This document shows, in pieces, positions 30,198 to 59,541 of a stretch of 64,000 nt of DNA (position 1 is its first letter; each line of letters opens with the position of its first letter). Below the pieces are notes generated by a model that worked only from the letters and a program-made list of their open reading frames with translations, searched no databases and was not told the origin of the DNA. A program made the translations under genes and the position numbers. Source of the DNA: an uncultured virus (IMG/VR IMGVR_UViG_3300017642_000062) (Duplodnaviria; Heunggongvirae; Uroviricota; Caudoviricetes); IMG/VR virus record IMGVR_UViG_3300017642_000062. One strand, written 5' to 3'.

Positions 30198-32126
30198 TTA
30201 ACTCTCCTTGCTGCTATCCAGCAAACCCTTCATGACAAAGCTAACGCAGGGAAGCGCTACTCCGTTCCCCCACATTTTGTATTCTGCTGCATCAGAGTGC
30301 AGCTTGTTATACCATCGAAGCATCTGCTTCCTCGAATAGTTCTTTGCCCGGCCGCCAGTGATGATGTCGTGTGTGTTCCGAACCTCAAGCCAGAAGCTAT
30401 ACTCATCATCGTTCAGGTCGTCCTTAATTTGGATTGTACCCCAGTCCGAAGGGAAGCCTTGCAGTCTGGCGCATTCGATTGGCGTCAACCTTCTGACGAC
30501 ATACTCAACTCCGTTTGACATTGGGATGAGCATATCAGAGTAAGCGTCCTGCCCGTTGAATCCACCCGGATGAGCGCCTGCGGCAATCGTCCCGGTAACA
30601 TCTTGGTACGGCTGTCCCACGAGCGGTGCGTCCTTGTAGTCTCTCGCCATCAGCGTGGACACCTTTTCCTCATTGGTTATCCCATAGCTTCCGGTAGTCA
30701 TTGAGTAGGCTACAGCGTGTCGATCAACAGTATTGAGCGTGAAGCTCAGATCTTCATCGATTCCTGGTCCCTGCGGACCGTTCTTGTCCTCCCGGCCTAT
30801 CATCGACCCCTGCAGGACATAAGTCTGCTGCTTTGTTCCAGACGCGCACAGCGCCCCAGCTTTATTTCCAAGCGTCCTAACCTCGTCCCGCTGATTCTGT
30901 GTGAATGGAATAGCGTCGACTATGGCAATACCGCCTTGATTGCAGCTTGGGTTCCCGCCTTTTGCGTCGATGGTTCTCGCTGTCCCGGCTTCGTAGATTC
31001 CACTGTCAGGGTTTATCGACTTCATGGCGTTTGAATCCTTGGAGCAGATCCCGTATGCCTTTGGTACGAATGCCGTTTGTCCGTTGCCGGACTCAGGCTT
31101 TATATCGAGCGTAAGCGGCACATTCCCGCCGCCTTTTCCCATCTGAGCGGCGAGTGTTTGAACGGTCCCATCATCACGGATCTTTATTCGGCTGTCCTGC
31201 GGGTGACTTTCTATTGACACCCCGGGAACAACTCCCGCTCTCAGCGTCGGAGATCGTTCCTTTTCGTACCCGATCCCGCGGCTCTTTGCCGAATGCTCTG
31301 TGCAAAACCCGGCGGCTCCGATCACACATGGCGGGTGATGTGCTTCGGCTCTCAGCGTCCCTGCGTGGCCGTTCGTGACGTCCATTCTTTTCCCGCCCTG
31401 ATCGTTTAGGCATATGACTGCCTTATCAGCGCAGTTCTCAGGATCTCTGGCAGCCTCTTTCCACGGGCTTCCGACCGGCGAATAATCCCTTGACACGCCT
31501 TCCGGCTCAAAGAGAATCTCTCCGGCACGATCACTTGCAAAATCTGCGACAAGATAGATACGACGGCGGCGTTGGGCGACTCCGAAATATTGCGCGTTAA
31601 GAGTTCTGTATGCCAGGCTCCATCCGTCTCCCATGTAAATGTCTGCGTGTGGCCATCCGTCCTTTTCAGGCGAAGGCACCTCGGCCCCCAGCTCGCGTAT
31701 CTGGATGATTGCGTCGATGACCGCTTTGAAATCGGCGCCTTTGTTTGAGCTGAATGCTCCCGGGACGTTCTCCCACAAGGCGTATCGTGGGTATCTTCCA
31801 TGTGTGCTGCACCTCATTTCCTTGATGATTCTGACAGCCTCGTAGAAAAGCACCGACTGCTTTCCATTGAGGCCTTCGCGCCTTCCGGCGAGTGATAAGT
31901 TGGTGCACGGACTCCCAAAGGAGATGATATCGACAGGTTCTATCTCTGCACCGTTGATTTTTGATACATCGCCAATGTGCCGCATCTGAGGCAGCCATGT
32001 CCTGGTAACCGCAATCGGGTACGGTTCTATCTCTGCCGCCCAGATCGGAGTTATCCCATGCAGAAGACCGCCAAGCGGGAATCCTCCGGAGCCATCAAAT
32101 AGGCTCCCAAGCGTGAGCCTATTCAT
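30198..32126 (-). CDS. DNA (cytosine-5)-methyltransferase with long variable region
   Basis: SLFDGSGG, FGSPC, WENVPG, QRRRR, RRLTPIECARLQGFP, GNGV. Confidence 0.95.
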   Translation of the reverse strand: MNRLTLGSLFDGSGGFPLGGLLHGITPIWAAEIEPYPIAVTRTWLPQMRHIGDVSKINGAEIEPVDIISFGSPCTNLSLAGRREGLNGKQSVLFYEAVRIIKEMRCSTHGRYPRYALWENVPGAFSSNKGADFKAVIDAIIQIRELGAEVPSPEKDGWPHADIYMGDGWSLAYRTLNAQYFGVAQRRRRIYLVADFASDRAGEILFEPEGVSRDYSPVGSPWKEAARDPENCADKAVICLNDQGGKRMDVTNGHAGTLRAEAHHPPCVIGAAGFCTEHSAKSRGIGYEKERSPTLRAGVVPGVSIESHPQDSRIKIRDDGTVQTLAAQMGKGGGNVPLTLDIKPESGNGQTAFVPKAYGICSKDSNAMKSINPDSGIYEAGTARTIDAKGGNPSCNQGGIAIVDAIPFTQNQRDEVRTLGNKAGALCASGTKQQTYVLQGSMIGREDKNGPQGPGIDEDLSFTLNTVDRHAVAYSMTTGSYGITNEEKVSTLMARDYKDAPLVGQPYQDVTGTIAAGAHPGGFNGQDAYSDMLIPMSNGVEYVVRRLTPIECARLQGFPSDWGTIQIKDDLNDDEYSFWLEVRNTHDIITGGRAKNYSRKQMLRWYNKLHSDAAEYKMWGNGVALPCVSFVMKGLLDSSKES

Positions 32127-33348
32127 AGCAATTTACCGTTTTGTACGGAATGGACTGACCTTCTCGAATGACCTTCACATCGGCGTCGCTTCCCGTAAGG
32201 CCGATATACCGCTTAACGATGACGTCGCAGTATTTTTCTTCGATCTCGGCCATCCGGCAAACGCGACCGGCTCTCTCGCAGGCAATGAGTGTGGTCCCGC
32301 TCCCTCCGAATGGGTCGAGTACGATTCCGTGCATTGCGCTGGAGTTCTTGATGGGGTACTCGATGAGATCCACCGGCTTCATGGTCGGATGATCCATGCT
32401 GACGGTTGGGCGGTCGAACTCCCAGACGGTGGTTTGCTTTCGGTCGCTGTACCAATTGTGCTTTCCGGACTTCTTCCACCCGAACAGCACTGGCTCGTGT
32501 TGCCATTGGTATGGGGAGCGCCCCATGACGAAGGACTGCTTTTTCCAAATGCAGCATTCCGAGAGATAAAATCCGGCGTCTGCAAACGCCTTCCTGAAGA
32601 TGAACCCCTCAGTATCAGAATGAAATACATAGATTGATGCGTCCGAGGCCATTGACCATTCTATGTTCTGGAACGCAGAAAAGATGAAGCTGTAAAAAGC
32701 CTCATCTCCCATGTTGTCATTCTTTACTTTTCCGGCAACGCCCTCGTAGTTCACGTTGTACGGAGGGTCTGTTACAACAAGGCTTGCCAGCTCTCCGTTG
32801 AGCAGCCTTTCAAAAACCGCCGGATCTGTGCTGTCTCCACAAATGAGCCTATGGCTTCCGAGCAACCAGATATCTCCGCACTGGGATATGCACGGCCGCT
32901 CCAGTTCTTCCTCGACGTCAAAGTCATCATCATCAGCGCCGGCTGATACGCCAGCAAATAGGAGCGCCAGCTCTTTATCGTCAAAGCCGGTCGGCTGCAT
33001 AGCTGCGCCGCTTTTTGTTATGTCCGAAAGAAGAACTACAAGCTTGTCTTCGTCCCAATCACCGGTAATCTTGTTGAGCGCAATATTCAGACGTTTTTCA
33101 TCGACATCAGAAAGGTCAACAACACTTACTTCGCTCTCATCGACACCCATATCCTGAAGGACGCGAAGCCGCTGGTGTCCACCGACGACATTCCCGGTCG
33201 CTTTGTTCCATACGATTGGTTCAACATTTCCGAAGGCAAGCATCGACGCTTTGAGTTTTTCGTATGCCGGGTCGCCCTGGCACAGTTCTTTTCTCGGGTT
33301 ATATTTTGCTGGGTTTAATTCCGATAGCCGCATCTTCACGATTTCCAT
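32119..33348 (-). CDS. ParB-N domain + N6/N4 DNA methyltransferase
   Basis: YNPR...VVGGHQRL; TDPPYN; HPTMKP; LDPFGGSGTT. Confidence 0.93.
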   Translation of the reverse strand: MEIVKMRLSELNPAKYNPRKELCQGDPAYEKLKASMLAFGNVEPIVWNKATGNVVGGHQRLRVLQDMGVDESEVSVVDLSDVDEKRLNIALNKITGDWDEDKLVVLLSDITKSGAAMQPTGFDDKELALLFAGVSAGADDDDFDVEEELERPCISQCGDIWLLGSHRLICGDSTDPAVFERLLNGELASLVVTDPPYNVNYEGVAGKVKNDNMGDEAFYSFIFSAFQNIEWSMASDASIYVFHSDTEGFIFRKAFADAGFYLSECCIWKKQSFVMGRSPYQWQHEPVLFGWKKSGKHNWYSDRKQTTVWEFDRPTVSMDHPTMKPVDLIEYPIKNSSAMHGIVLDPFGGSGTTLIACERAGRVCRMAEIEEKYCDVIVKRYIGLTGSDADVKVIREGQSIPYKTVNCYE

Positions 33349-33587
33349 GTGAAGACCTCCTTTGTGAGCTGTCACCACCTCACGCTTGGCAGGCGCAAGA
33401 TCTGACGCATGACCGCTCACAAAGGAGAAATGGGCGGTCAAACCCTCCTTTCGGATAAAAATAGACGACCCTCGCGAGAGGGCCGTCCGGCTTGATTGGA
33501 ATTTTACATTTTGCAGTGTAACTCATTACCTACCGACTTGTAAAGGCATAAGCAGGAGCTCGCGTGCACCGCGTGGCACCGGGTGGA

Positions 33588-49476: not shown

Positions 49477-49505
49477 GCCTGCCTCCTTTCACGGTGTTTA
49501 ACCGG

Positions 49506-49706
49506 TTACACACCATCGGCAAAAAAAATCTTGTCCACCGTGGTGTTCAAGGCCTGCGCAAGTTTGACCAGCGTTTTGGTCGAAACAGCTCTATTTGTGC
49601 CGTTTTCAAGGGCAGATACTGTGCCTCGACTAACGCCGCTTTTCTCGCAGAGCTCCTCCTGGGACATTTTGAGGGAGACTCTGATTTCTTTAATTCTGTA
49701 TCCCAT
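49506..49706 (-). CDS. Cro-like HTH regulator
   Basis: 66-aa XRE HTH, divergent from repressor. Confidence 0.9.
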   Translation of the reverse strand: MGYRIKEIRVSLKMSQEELCEKSGVSRGTVSALENGTNRAVSTKTLVKLAQALNTTVDKIFFADGV

Positions 49707-49728
49707 GTAAGCTACCTCCTTTCAAAGT

Positions 49729-49860
49729 GTTTAATCGGCTGCACAGTCACATAGTACACCTCAAATTTCAGCGTGTCAAGAGGATTGAACAAATTGTGTT
49801 CAATTTATTTCACAAATACAATTGACATTGCAATAGATGGGAATGTATAATGAATTGAAC
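49729..49860. promoter_or_regulatory. Lysis/lysogeny switch: divergent promoters and operators
   Basis: Minus TTGACA(49779-74)-17-TACTAT; plus TTGACA(49822)-18-TATAAT; four GTTCAA-N4-TTGAAC-like sites here plus one at 49496. Confidence 0.8.
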
Positions 49861-49880
49861 ATAGCGAGGAGGAATTCAGC

Positions 49881-50279
49881 ATGGATTTGCGAAGTTTTTT
49901 AATTAAATACAGGTCTGAGCATGGCCTTTCGCAGCGCCAATTTTCTGAAGCGTGTGGCATGTCAAATGGATATATATCAATGATTGAACGCGGCAAGAAT
50001 CCAAAGACACAGCTGCCCGTAACTCCGACACTTACAGCGTTAAAGAAAATTGCCTCAGGTATGGGAATGACTCTGTCTTCACTGCTCACAGAGGTTGATG
50101 ACATGGAGGTTAATCTAACCGGAGATTCGTCAAAGAAAAAGACCGCCCTCAACAAAGAGAGCGGTCTGATGGATGGTACCGATTCTGAAATTGTGAGCAT
50201 TATTTTGTCTCTATCTCAGGATAAAAAGGCAGAGGCACTTCGTTATCTTCGCTATCTTGCAAAGAGCGAAGATATGTAA
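49881..50279 (+). CDS. CI-like repressor (XRE HTH + short helical C-terminus, no S24 peptidase)
   Basis: GLSQRQFSEACGMSNGYISMIERG; divergent from cro. Confidence 0.9.
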   Translation: MDLRSFLIKYRSEHGLSQRQFSEACGMSNGYISMIERGKNPKTQLPVTPTLTALKKIASGMGMTLSSLLTEVDDMEVNLTGDSSKKKTALNKESGLMDGTDSEIVSIILSLSQDKKAEALRYLRYLAKSEDM

Positions 50280-50355
50280 ATAGCGCACACTTGCTGTCCG
50301 CCGGCACATCTTCGAGAAGGCGCAGTAGTTCCAGGACTTTCTTGCTTGATGCCAT
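50200..50355 (-). CDS. Small antisense protein (51 aa) resembling repressor C-terminus; candidate antirepressor; not in ORF track
   Basis: GAAAGGAG RBS; TGnTACACT -10; MASSKKVLELLRLLEDVPADSKCALFTYLRSLQDSEDNEVPLPFYPEIETK. Confidence 0.65.
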   Translation of the reverse strand: MASSKKVLELLRLLEDVPADSKCALFTYLRSLQDSEDNEVPLPFYPEIETK

Positions 50356-50508
50356 ATTCGCCGCTCCTTTCTTTTATTCTGCCGGCAGTGTAGTTAGTGT
50401 ACCACGGTTTGGTATTTATTGCAGAGAAAAGATAATTAATAACTTTCGACTGACTTCGACCAGTGATATCCTGTATGTGTGGATTTTATGTTGTTGGGGA
50501 GGATTTGT

Positions 50509-51147
50509 ATGAAAAGGGGTTTACTTGTTTCCCTCATCGTTGCATTGCTTGTTTTTGCTACTTCATGCGGAAGTAATAGCAATTCGATAAATAGCTCAAC
50601 CGACGAAGACGGTAATCTTGTTCTTGATAGCGACGGGAGAAGGACCGTAATGATAAATTCTCTACCGCATGATATGCCATATAACGATTTAAGCATATCA
50701 TTGGAAAGCGTAGAAGTGTATGAGAACGAGGTGAATTATTCTCACACGCTATTCATTGTCACAACAATTGGAGTATCTGGACTTGATGAAGAATCATTAC
50801 ATTGGCTTATGGAGAGCGATCTAAATGTTTCGGCGTACATAACTTGTGCGGATAATGATTACGATTTTAACTCAGCAACAAAGCTTGGGTCGCTGCTCCT
50901 CTCTGATGGAAATCTTATTTTTGTAAGCACGTCCGTCTTTGGCAAGGAAAATCGACACAGTTTCGCCGGGTCTGAAATATGCGTTTCCGTATCAATCAAT
51001 CAAGAGGGAGAAAACGCTAAAGAAGAATGCGCGCAATACTCTTACTCGGCTCCTGATTTAATTCCAGACGCTGATGAAATTCAGCAGCCATTAAATGAGC
51101 ATATAGCCGACTGGCTATACGAAAGAGCGGATTCGCTAAAACCATAG
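50509..51147 (+). CDS. Lipoprotein in lysogeny module
   Basis: Signal MKRGLLVSLIVALLVFATS-C; AT-rich; between repressor and integrase. Confidence 0.8.
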   Translation: MKRGLLVSLIVALLVFATSCGSNSNSINSSTDEDGNLVLDSDGRRTVMINSLPHDMPYNDLSISLESVEVYENEVNYSHTLFIVTTIGVSGLDEESLHWLMESDLNVSAYITCADNDYDFNSATKLGSLLLSDGNLIFVSTSVFGKENRHSFAGSEICVSVSINQEGENAKEECAQYSYSAPDLIPDADEIQQPLNEHIADWLYERADSLKP

Positions 51148-51170
51148 ATTTTTGAATTGAGGTGACGCCG

Positions 51171-53129
51171 TTGGCAAAAAAGAAATCGCTGCCGAGTATC
51201 CAAGTGGAGGCGGACGGCGTTGAGTATGCGCGATATAGTAGCCACGCCCAAAAGGATGCCAGCATTGAGCAGCAGATAGAGAAGTGTGATGAATTCGCAT
51301 CTATAAATAAAATCCATATCATTGAGAGATATAAGGACAGGGCAATTACCGGAAAGACTGATCGGCGCGCCGACTTCCAGCGGATGATGCACGATGCAGA
51401 AAAAGGGAAATTCAAATATGTCATAGCATGGAAATCAAATAGAATGGGTCGCAATATGCTGGAAGCGATGTTGAACGAGGCGAAGCTTCAAGACCTGGGA
51501 ATCCGGGTTCTGTATGTTGAGGAGGACTTCGACGATACCGCAGCCGGGAGGTTTGCGCTCCGGTCCATGATGAATGTCAACCAGTTTTATAGCGAGAATA
51601 TGGCGGAAGATATCAAGCGAGGGCTGTACGACAATGCCGCAAACTGCAAAGTTACCAACGGGCATCTTCCGTATGGCTACAAAGCGGACGAAGATTTGAA
51701 GTATACGCTGGATGATTCAAGGGCCGCTGTCGTTCGGGAGATATTTACACGCGTCTCTTGTGGAGAAGCCATTGTTGATATCTATACAGATCTTAATTTG
51801 AGAGGGCTTACAACCTCTCTCGGAAACCAGTGGGGGAGGAGCAGCTTCAACAAGCTGTTGTCGAATGAGCGGTATCTGGGTATATATATTTACGGAGACG
51901 TCAGAATTGATGGCGGGATTCCTCGAATTGTTAGCGATGAATTGTTTTACAAGGTGCAGGAGGTGTTGAAAACGAAGAAGAACGCCAGAGGGCGTCATCG
52001 TAATGATGCGGCCGATTATCTGCTTACCGGGAAATTGTATTGTGGGCATTGTAAAAGTCCAATGACTGGAATTTCAGGCACAAGCCGGACTGGCGCTTTG
52101 CATTACTATTATGTTTGCCAAAAGAAGCGGCAGGAAAAGTCGTGCGAAAAGAAGAACGTCAAGCGTGATGAAATCGAGTTGCAACTCGCAAGAGCCATAA
52201 AGGAATATTGCCTGACCGACGATCTGATTGAGTGGTATGCAGACAAAACTGTTGAATATTTCAAACGTCAGTCTGAAACCGACCATATCAAAGATTTGCA
52301 GGAAGATCTGGCTAACACGCAGCGCAGCATAAAAAACACCCTCAAGGCCATTGACGCCGGGATTATCACAGAAAGTACCCGGACTCATCTTATAGAATTG
52401 GAGGCAAAACAATCGAGGCTTTCTGGAGCAATCTCTGCCGCAAAATCCGATGTCGTGCAAGTCGACCGCGAGGATCTAATTAGCAGCATGGAAATGGTGC
52501 GGGACGGAGATACCTATGACAAAAAATATCAAGCGCTGCTGTTCGATACTTTTCTCATACGGGTCTATTTATACGATGACGATCTGGAACTCATATTTAG
52601 TTGCCCTGGTGTTAAAAACTCAATAAGAATTCCGTTGGATATTTCAGCAGTTGAAAATACAGAAGAAACAGCCACCTCAACGGTTCGTTTAAGCTCAACT
52701 TTGAGCCACCATATAAGAACGCTAATATTGATACGGTTAGTATCGGTGTTAGCGTTCTTATTTTATGCCCGAAAAGCCTGTATTTACAGGCTTTTTTGTG
52801 TTTCTACACTCTATCACTTCTTTCACCTATACGAAAAATGCACCCGCCGACCGTGTAAATTTGCCCTTTTTTATACCCTCGCAGAACGATTGCTTGCAAG
52901 GGGGTGCAAATTTCGGAGGGGGGTGCATTTTTTCATAGAGGGGGGTGCAAACGAAAAAAGAGGCCAAGCCTTACAGCTCGACCTCAATCTCTGTGCCGTT
53001 CTTAAACTCAAACACCATCCTGCCGTCATGGAAAACCGTAGCCTTTTCCAGCAATCCAACCCACAGCCTTTCGTTCCAGCTTTCGAGGACGAGGGGCTGT
53101 TCTTTTATGGATTCAATGAAAAGCCTTAG
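51171..53129 (+). CDS. int: Large serine recombinase (prophage integrase); conserved part ends ~52711, remainder is read-through past att
   Basis: YARYSS, WKSNRMGRN, PYGY, YLLTGKLYCGHC Zn ribbon, coiled coil; non-protein-like tail after VRLSSTLSHH. Confidence 0.92.
   Translation: MAKKKSLPSIQVEADGVEYARYSSHAQKDASIEQQIEKCDEFASINKIHIIERYKDRAITGKTDRRADFQRMMHDAEKGKFKYVIAWKSNRMGRNMLEAMLNEAKLQDLGIRVLYVEEDFDDTAAGRFALRSMMNVNQFYSENMAEDIKRGLYDNAANCKVTNGHLPYGYKADEDLKYTLDDSRAAVVREIFTRVSCGEAIVDIYTDLNLRGLTTSLGNQWGRSSFNKLLSNERYLGIYIYGDVRIDGGIPRIVSDELFYKVQEVLKTKKNARGRHRNDAADYLLTGKLYCGHCKSPMTGISGTSRTGALHYYYVCQKKRQEKSCEKKNVKRDEIELQLARAIKEYCLTDDLIEWYADKTVEYFKRQSETDHIKDLQEDLANTQRSIKNTLKAIDAGIITESTRTHLIELEAKQSRLSGAISAAKSDVVQVDREDLISSMEMVRDGDTYDKKYQALLFDTFLIRVYLYDDDLELIFSCPGVKNSIRIPLDISAVENTEETATSTVRLSSTLSHHIRTLILIRLVSVLAFLFYARKACIYRLFCVSTLYHFFHLYEKCTRRPCKFALFYTLAERLLARGCKFRRGVHFFIEGGANEKRGQALQLDLNLCAVLKLKHHPAVMENRSLFQQSNPQPFVPAFEDEGLFFYGFNEKP
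52713..52761 (+). terminator. 22-bp RNA hairpin after CCACCA junction
   Basis: ATAAGAACGCTAATATTGATAC-GGTTA-GTATCGGTGTTAGCGTTCTTAT; the three mismatches are all G-U compatible on + strand; T tail. Confidence 0.7.
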
Positions 53130-54166
53130 TTCACGGTCGCGGTCTTGTTTCCGTGTCCGCTCGTCGCTCAGTTCGTCCACTCGTTTTGTGGCTTTCTCGT
53201 AACGCTTGACCAGCGCATTGTACTTTTTCGTGTATTCCTCTTGGGACTGCGCCGAAGAAGCGTTTTCCCTTACGCAGGACTTGACCATTTCGGCAACTAC
53301 TTCGATTTCCTCTGACAGCCGGTCGATTTGCGCATCCAGTGCCGTGCAGTCCGAAACAGCCAATCGCATGAGCTCACAGTCGCTGATAACTGACTCGCGG
53401 CTTGCAATAAGCCGGTCGTAGGCAATCAGGAACTTCTGCTGGATGGTCTCCGCATCGAGGTGCGGCGTAGCGCATCGCTGTTCGCCTTTGAATTTACTGT
53501 TGCAACGCCATATCACCTTGCGGTAGGTGTCGGTGGAGTGCCAGACCTTCTGCCCATAGAATCCACCGCAATCGCCGCAGACCAGCTTGGACGAAAACAC
53601 GCTGTTGCCGCTGTAGGCTCTGCCGAGCGTCTTTCGGCGGGCAATCTCTGCCTGCACCATGTCCCATTCGACAGGACTGATAATAGCTTCGTGGCTGTGT
53701 TCCACATAATACTGCGGCACTTCGCCCTCGTTGGGCTTCATCTTTTTCATCAAGAAATCGACTGTGAACTTCTTTTGCAGAAGAGCATCACCCTTGTATT
53801 TCTCATTGGAGAGCATACTGTTTACCGTGGTCTGGCTCCATTTCTTTTTGCCGGAAGGTGTCGGAACGCCCTGTGCATCAAGGTATCGGCAAATTCCGGC
53901 AGGCGTCTTTCCCTCAAGGAAAAGCGTATAGATGAGCCGTACAATGGTGGCTTCCTCCTCGTTGATAACAGGAGTGCCGTCCGCGCCTTTTTCGTAACCG
54001 AGGAATTGCTTGTACGGCATACTGACTTTGCCATCAGCAAAACGCTTTCGTTGCCCCCATGTGACATTCTCGGAGATTGAGCGGCTTTCTTCCTGCGCAA
54101 GGCTGGACATTATCGTGATGAGCAGCTCGCCCTTGCTGTCGAAGGTGAAAATGTTCTCTTTTTCAA
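52971..54166 (-). pseudogene. N-terminally truncated large serine recombinase of a second element
   Basis: Frame begins abruptly at EKENIFTFDSKGELLITIMSSLAQEESRSISEN; catalytic N-terminus missing; recombinase, Zn ribbon and coiled coil intact. Confidence 0.85.
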
Positions 54167-54379: not shown

Positions 54380-55741
54380 TCATACATCCGCCGTAGCCAG
54401 CGCCGTTGAAATGGCGTCGGAGGCTTGCTTCATGGTTTCGGCAAAGACGTGAGCGTAAATCGTCTCAGTGGTGCGTGTGTCCCTGTGGCCCAGATGCTCG
54501 GAAATCACCTTCACCGGCACACCCATGTTTATCAGGAGCGAGGCGTTTGCGTGGCGCAGGTCGTGGATATGTACATCCGGGAAATCGTGCTTGGCGAGAA
54601 GCTGCTTAAATTGCAGGTTGATATAGGATTTTGCCATGTACTCGCCGTATGACCCGGTGAAAACGGCTCCACGGTCAATCCAGCGTTTTCCTACAGCTTT
54701 CCGGCGCTCGTCCTGCCATTCCTTCTGCTCACGCAGGGTCTCCACCAATTGTGGCGGCAGCGCAATCACGCGGGCGCTGCTCTTGGTCTTGGGCGTGGTG
54801 AGCCGGTATTCTCCGTCCAGCCGGTAAAGATTGTACTTGACTGTAAGCATGGCCCTGTCCAAATCGACTTCATCCCAGTGCAGGGCGGTCAGCTCACCGA
54901 CACGCATTCCAGTGTATAGGAGCGTTTTTATTACCCTCGGCAACTGCGGATTGGTAAACTCATCGAGGAAAGTCATCAGTTCTTTACATTGCTCGGCATC
55001 AAGGTAGACGCGCTCCTTTTCCTCTCCGGCAGGCGTGGTGGCGTTCGTGACCGGATTTTTCAGCAGGAGCTCCTTTTTTACCGCAGTCGAGAAAATAGGT
55101 GACAGCGCTGTGCGGATACGCTTTATGGTACCCACGTCCAGACTGCCACCTACTTCTTCTACAATAAATATGTCTTTCAACTTTACGCCCAGTGCCTCGG
55201 AAATCCTGACGGCAGTTTCCTTCAGGACCGTTTCACCGTTACCGAGAGTGCGCAGTGTGTTCATGTTCACGCCGGACTTGCGGGCCAGCGGTCGGCGGGT
55301 ACCGTACTCCAGCGTGGCAACGTCGCGCAGCTTGTAAGTTTCCCGTTTGCGACCGTCCCGGTACAACTCGTTGAACAGAGCGTCTATCCTCGCCGTGTTG
55401 ATGTCCTTCAGCTTCATATTGCCGATATACGGCAGTACATATAAGTTCATCAATTCCCGGTTATTTGCATAGGTGGCCGGTTTCAGCTTGTGAACGGCGA
55501 TCTGCTCGTAATACCATGTCGCCAATTCCGAGAAGCGGATGTTCTCGTTCATATTCACCATGCCTTCACAGTGCTTCTCAAACTCGTAGGCATAGGCCAT
55601 CGCCAGCTTGTCCGCTTTGCCCTCGGTCACACCCTCTGGCGGCGTGAACGTCGTATTTTTGCGTATCTGCTTACCGTATATATCGTAGCCCTGCGACACC
55701 ATAATTCTGTAGGTGTCGCCTCGTTTCTGTACGCTCGGCAT
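54380..55741 (-). CDS. int: Tyrosine integrase
   Basis: YTGMRVGEL, PKT, HDLRH, HLGH, YAH. Confidence 0.95.
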   Translation of the reverse strand: MPSVQKRGDTYRIMVSQGYDIYGKQIRKNTTFTPPEGVTEGKADKLAMAYAYEFEKHCEGMVNMNENIRFSELATWYYEQIAVHKLKPATYANNRELMNLYVLPYIGNMKLKDINTARIDALFNELYRDGRKRETYKLRDVATLEYGTRRPLARKSGVNMNTLRTLGNGETVLKETAVRISEALGVKLKDIFIVEEVGGSLDVGTIKRIRTALSPIFSTAVKKELLLKNPVTNATTPAGEEKERVYLDAEQCKELMTFLDEFTNPQLPRVIKTLLYTGMRVGELTALHWDEVDLDRAMLTVKYNLYRLDGEYRLTTPKTKSSARVIALPPQLVETLREQKEWQDERRKAVGKRWIDRGAVFTGSYGEYMAKSYINLQFKQLLAKHDFPDVHIHDLRHANASLLINMGVPVKVISEHLGHRDTRTTETIYAHVFAETMKQASDAISTALATADV

Positions 55742-55797
55742 CTGCCATCCCTCCATTCCGTAGTGGTATGTTCGCTCTGAACCGTGAAGAAGTCAAC

Positions 55798-57055: not shown

Positions 57056-57199
57056 ATGAAAAACCGCAAACGGCAGCGGGAGAACCGCAAAGAAGAAAAA
57101 CTGGATAAAACGAATCATACGGGAGTAAAAGATTTGACTCCATACAATGCCGTCCGGCTGATGCGTAGCGGCAAAATTTATGACATCAAATATAAATGA
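57056..57199 (+). CDS. Small basic protein (47 aa), not in ORF track
   Basis: GGAGG RBS; MKNRKRQRENRKEEKLDKTNHTGVKDLTPYNAV... Confidence 0.55.
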   Translation: MKNRKRQRENRKEEKLDKTNHTGVKDLTPYNAVRLMRSGKIYDIKYK

Positions 57200-57237
57200 A
57201 CAGCGCCATAAGCGCTCCGCAGAAAGGAGGTGGCGAG

Positions 57238-59541
57238 ATGGAGAAGCGAATGCCGGACCCCATGCTGGAGCTAAAACAGATGCGGATCTGGATGCTGTGG
57301 CGCTGGGAAGTCAAGGAAAATGGTGAGCGCACGAAGGTGCCTATAGCTGCTGGCGGCGGCCCGTCCGGTACCACAGAGAAGTGGAACCGTACATGGGTCA
57401 CATATGATGAAGTGGTAAAGGCGGAGGAAAAAAATCCTGCAGCGGCCGGTATCGGCTTCAAGATACCAGAAGGCTACTACTTCATTGATATAGACCACAG
57501 AGCGCTTACTGACCCGCTTGTGCAGACGATTCTTTTACGGCATGATTCGTATGCGGAATACTCGGTCAGCGGCACCGGCATCCACCAGTACGGTAAATGC
57601 GATTTTACGCAAATTCCCACCTATATTGACAAAAACGGAAAGCTGAAGCTCGACGGGCAGTTCTATACGAAAAATCCCAATAACGAAATGGAACTGTACA
57701 TCGGCGGCATCACAAACCGCTTCGCAGCCTATACCGGAAATGTGATTGAAAACAAGCCTCTCCGGGAGTGTACCGCCGCTATCCTTACTACCTTAGATAA
57801 GGATATGCGCCGCGCGAGAAAGGTCAAATACAGCGTCAAGCGTGACGGAGAGAAGGTTACTTTCGATCTTATTTGCAATCTCCGCAAACAGAAAAACGGC
57901 GAAAAATTCTGTAAATTGTTTGACAAGGGAGACTTCAGCGACTACGGTTCCCAGTCTGAAGCGGACGCGGCGCTCTGCGCGTTGCTCGCATTCCGTGCAG
58001 GACCGGACCCGGAAATGATAGACGCCGTCTTTCGGCAGTCGGCATTGTACCGGGATAAATGGGATCGAGAGGATTACCGGGATGCCACCATTGCCCTCGG
58101 CATCGAAGCCTGCCACGGCGTGTTCCACAAGTCAAAAATGGATCACCCGTACTTCATCCTTTTTGACGATGATGGTAAGCCCTTTGTATCCGCTCCGCTA
58201 CTGGCCAAATATATTCGTGAAAACCAGAGATACATCCTCGTCCGGGACAATGGCAAACAAGGCACACTCATCTACGTTTATAAGAACGGCTGCTACCGGC
58301 TATATGCCCCGGATATGATGAAGGGCGTCATCAAAGGCTATATCGCGGCGTATGACGAAACATTGGTAAGAATGACTCTCGTCAGCGAAGTGTATGGCCA
58401 ATTGACTACAGACCTTAACTATGTCAGTCAGGATGAGCTCAACGCCGACGAGAGTCTTATCAACTTTACCAACGGCCTCTTGCGCGTGACAGCAACGGAA
58501 CTGACGCTGCTGCCACACTCCCCGGATGTTCTATCGACTATTCAGATTCCATGCAGATGGACCGGGCATCCAGAGCCTACGCCGACCTTCGACCAGTATA
58601 TCACGGACTTCACAAGCGTCGATAAGGCCATCGAGCAACTGCTTTTGGAATTTATGGGCGTTGGTCTTTCCAACGTGAAGGGCTGGCGTATGAAGAAGTC
58701 GCTGTTCATGGTAGGCGATGGCGATACCGGAAAATCCCAGCTAAAAAGCCTCACAGAGCTGTTGCTCGGTAAGGGTAATTTCATCGGCATCGACCTGAAA
58801 GAGATTGAGGCCCGGTTCGGCACCGGTGCTATCTATGGTACCCGCCTTGCCGGTAGCTCAGATATGAGCTTTCTGTCCGTGGACGAGCTAAAGACCTTCA
58901 AAAAGATCACGGGCGGCGACAGTCTGTTCGCGGAGTTCAAAGGACAGCAGGGTTTTGAGTACACCTACAACGGCCTGCTCTGGTTCTGCATGAACCGGCT
59001 CCCCAAGTTCGGCGGCGACGACGGCCAGTGGGTCTATGACCGCATTATGGTCGTAGAGTGTAAAAACGTGATTCCGAAGGACAAGCAGGATAAGACTCTG
59101 CTTGACAAAATGTACGCCGAGCGCGAGGGCATCGTCTACAAGGCTGTCAAAGCCCTCCAGACAGTCATTTCCAACAGCTATCGCTTCTCCGAACCGGATT
59201 TCGTCAGCAAGGCTCGTGACACCTATATGTGCGAAAACAATACCGTTATTAGCTTCTATCACGAGTGCATGGCAGAGCGCCCACAGCCGGGTACGGTTAA
59301 GGACACCTGCACCACTGGGAAGGTTTATGACGTCTATAAGGCGTGGTGCCACGACAACAATAATGGCTACGCCAAGACCGCCAAGGAGTTCCGTGACACG
59401 CTGGCCGGGATGCTCGGCAGCACGTTTAAAGGTATGACCATTCATACAGACAAGGGCACCTGCTACCGCGACCTCACGCTCACGATCGACGCAAAGCAGC
59501 AGTACCAAAGGGAGTACGGTTATGATGAGCTTCTCGGCTGA
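57238..59541 (+). CDS. Primase-polymerase / SF3 helicase (P4/D5 family)
   Basis: FIDID, EYSVSGTGIH, SQSEADAAL, D5_N LINFTNG, Walker A GDGDTGKS. Confidence 0.93.
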   Translation: MEKRMPDPMLELKQMRIWMLWRWEVKENGERTKVPIAAGGGPSGTTEKWNRTWVTYDEVVKAEEKNPAAAGIGFKIPEGYYFIDIDHRALTDPLVQTILLRHDSYAEYSVSGTGIHQYGKCDFTQIPTYIDKNGKLKLDGQFYTKNPNNEMELYIGGITNRFAAYTGNVIENKPLRECTAAILTTLDKDMRRARKVKYSVKRDGEKVTFDLICNLRKQKNGEKFCKLFDKGDFSDYGSQSEADAALCALLAFRAGPDPEMIDAVFRQSALYRDKWDREDYRDATIALGIEACHGVFHKSKMDHPYFILFDDDGKPFVSAPLLAKYIRENQRYILVRDNGKQGTLIYVYKNGCYRLYAPDMMKGVIKGYIAAYDETLVRMTLVSEVYGQLTTDLNYVSQDELNADESLINFTNGLLRVTATELTLLPHSPDVLSTIQIPCRWTGHPEPTPTFDQYITDFTSVDKAIEQLLLEFMGVGLSNVKGWRMKKSLFMVGDGDTGKSQLKSLTELLLGKGNFIGIDLKEIEARFGTGAIYGTRLAGSSDMSFLSVDELKTFKKITGGDSLFAEFKGQQGFEYTYNGLLWFCMNRLPKFGGDDGQWVYDRIMVVECKNVIPKDKQDKTLLDKMYAEREGIVYKAVKALQTVISNSYRFSEPDFVSKARDTYMCENNTVISFYHECMAERPQPGTVKDTCTTGKVYDVYKAWCHDNNNGYAKTAKEFRDTLAGMLGSTFKGMTIHTDKGTCYRDLTLTIDAKQQYQREYGYDELLG

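Follow-up and report, generated by a model that had tools for sequence, protein, structure and literature searches.

The 64,000-nt stretch of DNA analysed here (the window, whose positions are used throughout) comes from an uncultured virus of the Caudoviricetes (IMG/VR IMGVR_UViG_3300017642_000062), and its region 49506-53129 is the lysogeny switch of a prophage. Within this switch, the 3′ end of a repressor gene is overlapped by a small convergent gene on the opposite strand, the predicted product of which resembles the C-terminal tail of the repressor and probably acts as its antagonist. The host group of this temperate phage is gut Clostridia; most relatives that bear a name are Oscillospiraceae, and Faecalibacterium and Oscillibacter are represented among them. 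The two genes and the signals of the small gene are arranged as follows.

49881..50279, plus strand: repressor gene, 132 aa, XRE/HTH_3 (Pfam HTH_3)
50396..50424, minus strand: promoter of the small gene, CTGCAA-17-TGgTACACT, with the extended -10 element TGgTACACT at 50404-50396 (sequence reading)
50379..50388, no strand: conserved 10-bp palindrome CTGCCGGCAG, starting 7 nt after the -10 element, at about the transcription start; candidate operator
50364..50370, minus strand: Shine-Dalgarno (SD) sequence AAAGGAG, 8 nt before the ATG (sequence reading)
50200..50355, minus strand: small gene, 51 aa (stop included), the final 80 nt of which overlap the repressor gene (open reading frame (ORF) list)
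50244..50274, no strand: central palindrome of the overlap, TATCTTCGCT-N11-AGCGAAGATA, dyad at 50259, encoding YLR and SED in both proteins (inverted-repeat scan)
50130..50167, minus strand: intrinsic terminator of the small gene, 11-bp stem with 7 G-C pairs, then TTTTCTTTGA (terminator scan)

As predicted by AlphaFold2 (AF2; mean predicted local distance difference test score (pLDDT) 81.6), the repressor consists of a helix-turn-helix (HTH) domain (residues 1-75), a disordered linker (81-97, pLDDT<50) and a tail of two helices (99-110 and 113-129, pLDDT 85-90). The model thus has the architecture of the AimC-type module considered below, namely an HTH, a flexible linker and a helical C-terminal part. 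A whole-chain Foldseek search with this model returned DdrO (6jq1) first and SinR of the SinR/SinI complex (1b0n_A) third, the latter with an E value of 9e-4, a TM-score of 0.41-0.51 and a root-mean-square deviation of 12.9 over 132 columns, a superposition limited by the flexible linker. Repressors of this class share the tail consensus EIxxLIxxLSxxKKxEALxYLRYLA. No Peptidase_S24 or Peptidase_M78 (ImmA/IrrE) domain was detected by Pfam (E≤1e-4) in 32 further ORFs of 30-62 kb, nor in the ORFs flanking the repressor gene.

To place the small gene in context, 128 loci with repressor homologues were fetched; together with the window they comprise 62 loci with a tail-type repressor and 67 others. 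Homologues were detected by tblastn and by iterated hidden Markov model (HMM) searches of the DNA beside the repressor genes. An antisense ORF is present in all 62 loci, window included, whose repressor ends in a tail of the ...EALxYLRYLA type, and these ORFs encode 33 distinct proteins. Their overlap with the repressor gene varies from 59 to 92 nt and is always 2 mod 3. A six-frame search with the small-protein HMM, covering about 3 kb of flank on each side, gave no match in the 67 loci without the tail; three of these (L091, L098 and L107) are truncated at the tail, where the contig stops, and allow no judgement. An SD-like purine run precedes the start codon by 5-10 nt in 25 of 26 representatives, as read by eye. 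Outside the repressor gene, substitutions at codon positions 1, 2 and 3 number 66, 39 and 111 among 24 close pairs, which are not independent, and 28, 14 and 48 in a hand-summed count over eight disjoint pairs.

When 1.84 billion representative proteins were searched exhaustively with the small-protein profile, 162 clusters matched with E≤1e-3, of which 45 reached E≤1e-10, and most had a length of 43-55 aa; a word-index protein search retrieved the protein itself and one 92% relative only. Neither a family nor a name was found for it in Pfam, PHROGs, the PDB sequences or the ESM Atlas, and tblastn against 50,697 phage records gave no match. The gene is mostly missed by gene callers and family libraries, and there is no Pfam or PHROG family for it.

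The transcription signals are conserved along with the ORF. Relatives carry the promoter element TGnTATAAT, of which the window lineage has a weaker version, TACACT, that retains the TG; among 30 representative loci the -10 element matches in at least 5 of 6 positions in 26, and the TG extension is present in 24. The terminator hairpin extends from 50167 to 50140, with its tail reaching 50130, and lies within repressor codons 84-96, that is, in the linker. A G+C-rich hairpin of 10-12 bp followed by a T-run occurs downstream of the small-gene stop on the minus strand in 25 of 28 representatives; in the controls (stem ≥10 bp plus T-run) such hairpins were seen on none of the 28 plus strands and in 3 of 560 shuffled sequences. 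RNAalifold on 20 sequences recovered 11 terminator pairs, 9 of them with compensatory double changes. The poorly conserved, disordered linker of the repressor doubles as the terminator of the opposite-strand gene.

Since all tail-type loci carry the ORF, most representatives have the ribosome-binding site, promoter and terminator, and variation outside the overlap is concentrated in the third codon position, the small ORF is a real gene. Judged by its signals, it is a transcription unit of its own, running from the promoter (50424-50396) through the palindrome, ribosome-binding site and ORF to the terminator (50167-50130), and its predicted RNA of about 260 nt would be antisense to the repressor gene over the last ~150 nt. 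These results agree with a preliminary description of the locus that had been made from the letters alone: the convergent 51-aa ORF (50355-50200) with ribosome-binding site and extended -10 element over the 3′ end of the repressor gene was found in every element, the ORF proved to be conserved beside homologous repressors, which had been proposed there as a check, and the statement that the repressor has no autocleavage domain and no ImmA-like protease nearby fits the domain searches above.

The terminator scan of the window revealed no plus-strand terminator between the repressor stop and the small-gene promoter; the repressor and small-gene units therefore transcribe into each other. Convergent transcription from the strong repressor promoter may hold the small-gene promoter down in lysogens. 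This layout raises the question of whether the ~260-nt transcript is the main effector, lowering expression of repressor and integrase by antisense pairing or polymerase collision, with the ORF being secondary; lambda OOP RNA on cII and pR/pL of coliphage 186 offer models for such control. The convergent layout with a terminator ~150 nt inside the repressor gene is kept in 25 of 28 loci, the units must collide, and both promoters are close to consensus. However, a pure RNA function requires neither an SD-like ribosome-binding site, nor third-position-biased variation, nor a conserved protein profile, and we consider it unlikely that the RNA is the main effector. In agreement, a start-to-stop mutant of AimX, a small phage antirepressor with a similar gene layout, lost function, while a recoded ORF kept it (bioRxiv 10.1101/2025.11.23.689978). 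As an added layer beside a protein effector, antisense RNA or collision has a reasonable chance of being involved, if somewhat short of an even one. Of six wastewater libraries among public runs, four were compared with the locus, all of them as contigs that carry no information on strand, start or end; the one recorded as RNA covers only 50236-50527, at a depth of 3.

The small protein resembles the repressor tail at the level of the protein sequence. BLASTP aligns it with the repressor C-terminus without gaps, with 10 of 29 positions identical and a pairwise E value of 6e-4, exactly reproducing the alignment given in the preliminary description. The comparison of the small-protein family (A2, 27 sequences) with the tail family (A3) by hhalign covers 32 columns with a probability of 95.6% and an E value of 1.1e-8; when only the non-overlapping parts are compared, the register is unchanged (probability 91.5%, E 8.6e-7), and reversed-sequence controls give E values of 0.14-0.29. 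The small-protein HMM also matches the repressor's own tail in four loci (E ~5e-4). In the AF2 model, the small protein forms helices at residues 4-14 and 19-32, followed by an acidic, proline-containing unstructured end, and at an offset of +94 the two predicted helices coincide with repressor helices 99-110 and 113-129. The description of the ORF as a mimic of the repressor C-terminus is thus borne out as a likeness, at profile level and in matching predicted helices. On the basis of these sequence comparisons, the likeness holds at profile level, and neither common descent nor cognate co-evolution of the two proteins appears to be supported.

Part of the likeness in the window is written into the central palindrome. 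Its arms (50244-50253 and 50265-50274) are 10 bp long, 100% complementary and 11 nt apart; around 50259, mirror complementarity amounts to 10/10 at distances 6-15, 26/57 (46%) at distances 16-72 and 3/27 at distances 73-99. Repressor codon 127+k and small-gene codon 33+k are equidistant from 50259, and the protein alignment is the mirror image of the DNA. Because the two 10-bp arms are mirror-related, six of the ten identities (YLR and SED) arise automatically; the other matches lie in the DNA with 46% complementarity. It had rightly been recognized beforehand that these identities derive from a palindrome read on opposite strands, here from its two arms, and that the similarity upstream comes from different DNA (50280-50355 versus 50187-50240). 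The proposal that the palindrome ties the two interfaces together in evolution is not supported: no more than 14 of 34 distinct loci have their best axis at the dyad of the window, and over its non-overlapping half the small protein does not resemble the tail of its own repressor more than it does foreign tails (mean rank 10.3 of 22, with 11.5 expected).

The palindrome also bears on the possibility that there is no gene at all: the ORF could have arisen by chance opposite the repressor gene, the palindrome being nothing but a terminator or hairpin with which that gene ends. Open frames are common on the strand opposite to coding DNA, a palindrome yields identical peptides on both strands automatically if the frames match, and the 10-bp arms account for 6 of the 10 identities in the window. 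Yet the half of the ORF that extends beyond the repressor gene is conserved at the protein level, and ribosome-binding site, promoter and terminator accompany it, which makes an accident extremely improbable. Nor does the locus present the case named in the preliminary description as speaking against a mimic, a palindrome with no function but that of a terminator: with its 11-nt loop and without a T-run, the central palindrome is not called by the terminator scan, and the real terminator is a different hairpin, at 50167-50140.

The strict coupling of the small gene to the repressor tail is underlined by a natural domain swap. Close relatives of the HTH domain (~55-63% identity) carry a Peptidase_S24 autocleavage domain in place of the two-helix tail and lack the small gene, while their switch region is otherwise equal (loci L018, L019, L021, L024, L025 and others; proteins P0040-P0045). 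Tail-type and Peptidase_S24-type relatives represent an exchange between self-cleaving and probably decoy-controlled repressors. Many of the 67 loci without the small gene encode Peptidase_S24, and 13 have the same serine integrase downstream as the tail-type loci.

These 13 loci argue against another role of the small protein in lysogeny, either as a directionality factor of the serine integrase or as a partner that stabilizes repressor oligomers. A large serine recombinase is encoded less than 1 kb away in 36 of the 39 tail-type loci with enough flank, the same gene in each case, and in 16 of 18 annotated representatives; some directionality factors of serine integrases are equally small, and it is conceivable that a tail-like protein enters repressor oligomers and leaves them intact. 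Against this, not only do the 13 loci have a homologous serine integrase without the small gene, but three tail-type loci without that integrase keep the small gene, one of them (L078) having a tyrosine integrase instead. The small gene tracks the repressor tail, not the integrase, and its product has no DNA-binding motif and resembles the repressor tail but no part of an integrase. We therefore regard either of these roles as quite unlikely.

We propose, with a probability of roughly 60%, that the small protein is a SinI-like decoy of the repressor's dimerization tail, binding being predicted from the likeness and from precedent. This reading is the best one because the gene is real, is tail-like at profile level and occurs only beside tail-type repressors, never beside their S24 relatives. 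According to this model, binding of the repressor to its palindromic operators would require dimers or oligomers joined through the tail. The small protein would take the place of the second tail, and the resulting heterodimer, with a single DNA-binding domain, would release the lytic promoter. SinI antagonizes SinR, and AimX antagonizes AimC, in this manner. Dimerization via the tail, heterodimer formation and induction are all conjectural steps of this scheme.

Several observations weigh against the decoy. A common motif, L..L.LSxEEK..L..L, underlies the likeness, and the profile also finds a MarR-type protein (P0248); the likeness may therefore be convergence rather than common descent. The ranking against own and foreign tails described above also counts against the decoy, and no sign of cognate co-variation between the small protein and its own tail was seen outside the overlap. 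Nor is there a sequence relation of the small protein to SinI in Pfam or to any solved structure: against Pfam SinI (PF08671), the small protein has no family at E≤1, the 27 family members show no SinI at E≤10, and the repressor shows none. That the repressor tail dimerizes is suggested only by analogy with the architecture of SinR, DdrO and AimC-like proteins. Finally, the induction logic of the decoy model is incomplete. Of the interpretation put forward in the preliminary description, the real and conserved gene and the tail likeness have stood up, whereas the LexA box, the evolutionary tie through the palindrome and the novelty of the arrangement have not.

A more comprehensive scenario would combine these elements. 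The small gene would have arisen when the 3′ part of the repressor gene, which encodes the tail, was duplicated in inverted orientation, making repressor and decoy mirror images about the dyad at 50259, with the centre of the old palindrome still encoding the shared interface motif on both strands; the cassette would since have become part of the repressor gene, with the disordered linker accommodating its terminator, and it would be switched by a regulator at CTGCCGGCAG. Taken as a whole, this scenario is doubtful. If true, it would define an SOS-independent induction pathway common to many gut Oscillospiraceae and Faecalibacterium prophages.

The control of the small gene appears to reside in the start-site palindrome. 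CTGCCGGCAG occurs as an exact copy only once in the window. With at most one mispair, 21 of 30 loci have the palindrome, and in most of these it starts exactly 7 nt downstream of the -10 element; its variants include the symmetric CTACCGGTAG and CTGTCGACAA with one mispair. It is absent from the 10 S24-type loci and 2 other-tail loci inspected. We infer that it is the operator of a regulator. Its assignment as the operator type of the repressor was ruled out, as the TGTTYAA motifs are shared with the S24-type loci, which lack the palindrome. No evident host regulon emerged either: a related 3.3-Mb genome contains 13 exact sites compared with 3 of a control word, and the six inspected were all inside long ORFs. 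A role as part of a conserved RNA fold of the leader was likewise rejected (0 pairs).

The preliminary description had also pointed to a weak resemblance to a Firmicutes LexA box in the promoter. The LexA-like word AAACCGTGGTAC is indeed present at 50410-50399, one mismatch from RAAC-N4-GTTY. It is, however, confined to the sub-lineage of the window (the window and its two closest relatives; 3 of 30 representative loci) and not conserved: in the 30 loci, none has a perfect RAAC-N4-GTTY, and 7 come within one mismatch compared with ~4.9 expected. A related genome has the ordinary GAACAAATGTTT as its host-type lexA operator. LexA is probably not the trigger, a role that more likely falls to the factor acting at the CTGCCGGCAG start-site palindrome.

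A second class of tails recapitulates the arrangement. Loci L016, L020, L027 and L028 encode a related HTH with a different tail, ...F.ELF.KLT.EQQ.LI..QIKGILSNQ, and again an antisense ORF, here of 37-51 aa, with an overlap of 38-41 nt that is once more 2 mod 3. This ORF reads ...LF..LSPEAQ.AIIDLIKSLLSEK and resembles its own tail, not that of the first class; the L016 ORF matches its own tail in 14 of 35 positions (E 9e-6), and the class reaches z-scores of 5-8 relative to shuffles. The TGnTATAAT promoter, start-site palindrome, ribosome-binding site and terminator are shared with the first class, and the centre of the overlap is a short palindrome, GATAAAA-N4-TTTTATC. As the second class has its own tail-like antisense ORF, the design persists across deep divergence of both partners.

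Related layouts were seen elsewhere. Loci L108 and L113-L115, which belong to another tail class (...FLDLYRSVPEENRKELLALIETALKM...), have a convergent small ORF with a ribosome-binding site ~48 nt beyond the repressor stop; its self-likeness is weak only (z 2.6), and the arrangement may be a further, non-overlapping variant. In Clostridium phage phiMMP02 of C. difficile (L137), the repressor-like gp44 (133 aa) is followed by the convergent gp43 (43 aa) at 1492-2041 of that record, and the stop codons of both lie in the arms of a 15-bp perfect inverted repeat, such that both proteins end in KKE. BLASTP found no similarity between gp43 and gp44, and hhalign none to the small-protein family (E 0.55).

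The remaining features of the switch region surround this pair of genes.

49506..49706, minus strand: Cro-like 66-aa HTH gene (Pfam HTH_3, E 9e-18), divergent from the repressor gene and heading the early lytic operon
49751..49779, minus strand: promoter-like site of the cro-like gene and lytic operon, TTGACA-17-TACTAT (promoter scan; block kept in related loci)
49784..49804, no strand: operator-like palindrome ATTGAACA-N5-TGTTCAAT between the divergent promoters (inverted-repeat scan)
49822..49851, plus strand: repressor promoter, TTGACA-18-TATAAT, 12/12 consensus (promoter scan)
50409..50436, plus strand: back-to-back promoter-like site for the downstream lipoprotein and serine integrase genes (promoter scan; block GTCGAAAGTGATAAT... 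kept in relatives)
50509..51147, plus strand: variable accessory ('moron') gene, predicted lipoprotein of 212 aa; the slot holds YbjQ, SWIM, Mrr or TM2 genes in relatives
51162..53129, plus strand: large serine recombinase, the phage integrase (Pfam Resolvase, Recombinase, Zn_ribbon_recom)

After the Cro-like gene, the early minus-strand operon continues with genes assigned by Pfam to DUF3846, DUF1351, RecT, SSB, a G39P-like loader, RecU and a ParB-like protein. The operator-like palindrome at 49784..49804 is, judged from its sequence and position, the putative site of the repressor; additional TTNAACA half-sites follow the -10 element of the repressor promoter and lie within the cro leader, and the motif with its TGTTYAA half-sites is common to tail-type and S24-type loci. 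An 18-20-bp near-palindrome, GTGTTTAAyCGGyTrCACA, occurs in two copies (49490-49512 and 49725-49750); the leader of the cro-like gene contains one copy and that of the next minus-strand ORF (49476-49279) the other. The copy in the cro leader is kept throughout the related switch regions, also where the repressor is of the S24 type. It may represent a second operator type, with a CCGG core in common with the small-gene palindrome. The conserved palindromes of the switch all have a CCGG or YCGR core, and phage genes for two methylases, a C-5 cytosine methylase and an N6/N4 methylase with a fused ParB-like domain, lie at 30201-33441.

Back to back with the small-gene promoter, the block GTCGAAAGTGATAATATATCTTTT (minus strand) is kept at 50431-50460 and in related loci, and it probably carries the promoter of the variable accessory gene and the integrase. 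The last ~150 residues of the serine recombinase ORF (51162-53129) are without a family match, and its end runs into a second serine recombinase gene on the minus strand (52971-54110) that lacks a Resolvase domain. Beyond it lie a gene for a tyrosine integrase with an inserted HTH (54380-55756) and one for a D5-like primase (57196-59538). The segment 51162-55756 looks like a prophage end inserted in the recombinase gene of another mobile element.

Oscillospiraceae and Faecalibacterium prophages are abundant in the gut, and their inducers are largely unknown. The module described here provides a concrete, testable switch for a whole family, with at least 162 protein clusters and 66 loci, and it unites a non-cleavable repressor with a candidate decoy antirepressor and a conserved palindrome, operator-like yet distinct from a LexA box. 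It is also a case of extreme gene packing, in that a covarying terminator lies inside the linker of the protein that is probably targeted by the product of the terminated gene.

Among known systems, lambda OOP is a short non-coding RNA that starts at a promoter of its own, ends at an intrinsic terminator and is antisense to cII at its 3′ end. The small-gene transcript shares with it the promoter, the terminator and the antisense position at the 3′ end of a regulator gene; unlike OOP, it encodes a conserved protein. Tum of coliphage 186 and the Gifsy antirepressors are reportedly small, LexA-controlled antirepressors of non-cleavable repressors. The present module likewise combines a non-cleavable repressor with a candidate small phage antirepressor, but it has no conserved LexA box, and the antirepressor genes of Tum and Gifsy are not known to overlap the repressor gene. 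To our knowledge, these antirepressors are not look-alikes of repressor tails.

Another parallel is SinI-SinR of B. subtilis (PDB 1b0n), in which an XRE HTH with a C-terminal two-helix domain is paired with a small antagonist resembling that domain. The sinI gene lies upstream of sinR in the same direction. SinI-SinR is a chromosomal biofilm switch, whereas the pair described here forms a phage switch with convergent, overlapping genes. In the modules of transcription factor (TF) and small ORF (smORF) of Vibrio linear plasmid-like phages, a smORF product without recognizable domains inactivates cI in an SOS-independent way that involves no proteolysis (Silpe et al. 2023, PMC10432266). There, the smORF is divergent from an activator TF and away from cI; here, no activator gene is adjacent, and the ORF overlaps the repressor gene.

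The nearest relative in logic is the AimX-AimC(-AimL) module, an 'extended arbitrium' system of the Bacillus phages phi106, phiW23, BMBtp14 and others (Kabel et al., Nov 2025, bioRxiv 10.1101/2025.11.23.689978). According to this preprint, AimX is an antirepressor of 29-80 aa, the gene of which is convergent to, and sometimes overlaps, aimC; it binds AimC at its C-terminal oligomerization domain and blocks DNA binding, and the authors liken the pair to SinI/SinR. The arrangement that had been thought undescribed at our locus has therefore been reported already. Both systems have a gene for a small helical protein that faces the repressor gene convergently and overlaps its 3′ end (sometimes in the Bacillus phages, here in 62 of 62 tail-type loci), a repressor composed of an HTH, an unstructured linker and a helical C-terminal domain, and a divergent cro-like gene.

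Unlike the Bacillus module, the present one has no aimR-aimP upstream, only a divergent plus-strand accessory gene and then the integrase, and no receptor-like family emerged from the window and 18 related loci. The promoter of the small gene is its own and looks constitutive, with the CTGCCGGCAG start-site palindrome and no conserved LexA site, and the hosts are gut Clostridia instead of Bacillus. The literature searched mentioned neither the Oscillospiraceae small-protein family, nor a terminator lying within a repressor linker, nor the start-site palindrome, although the supplements of the preprint may hold more. Within the preprint text available, neither a profile similarity of AimX to the repressor tail nor a terminator embedded in the repressor linker is reported. 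Relative to AimX-AimC as described there, the new elements are thus a switch with neither arbitrium nor LexA, a sequence-level look-alike of the repressor tail, a linker-embedded terminator and a candidate operator at the start site, and they extend the logic of AimX-AimC beyond Bacillus and arbitrium signalling.

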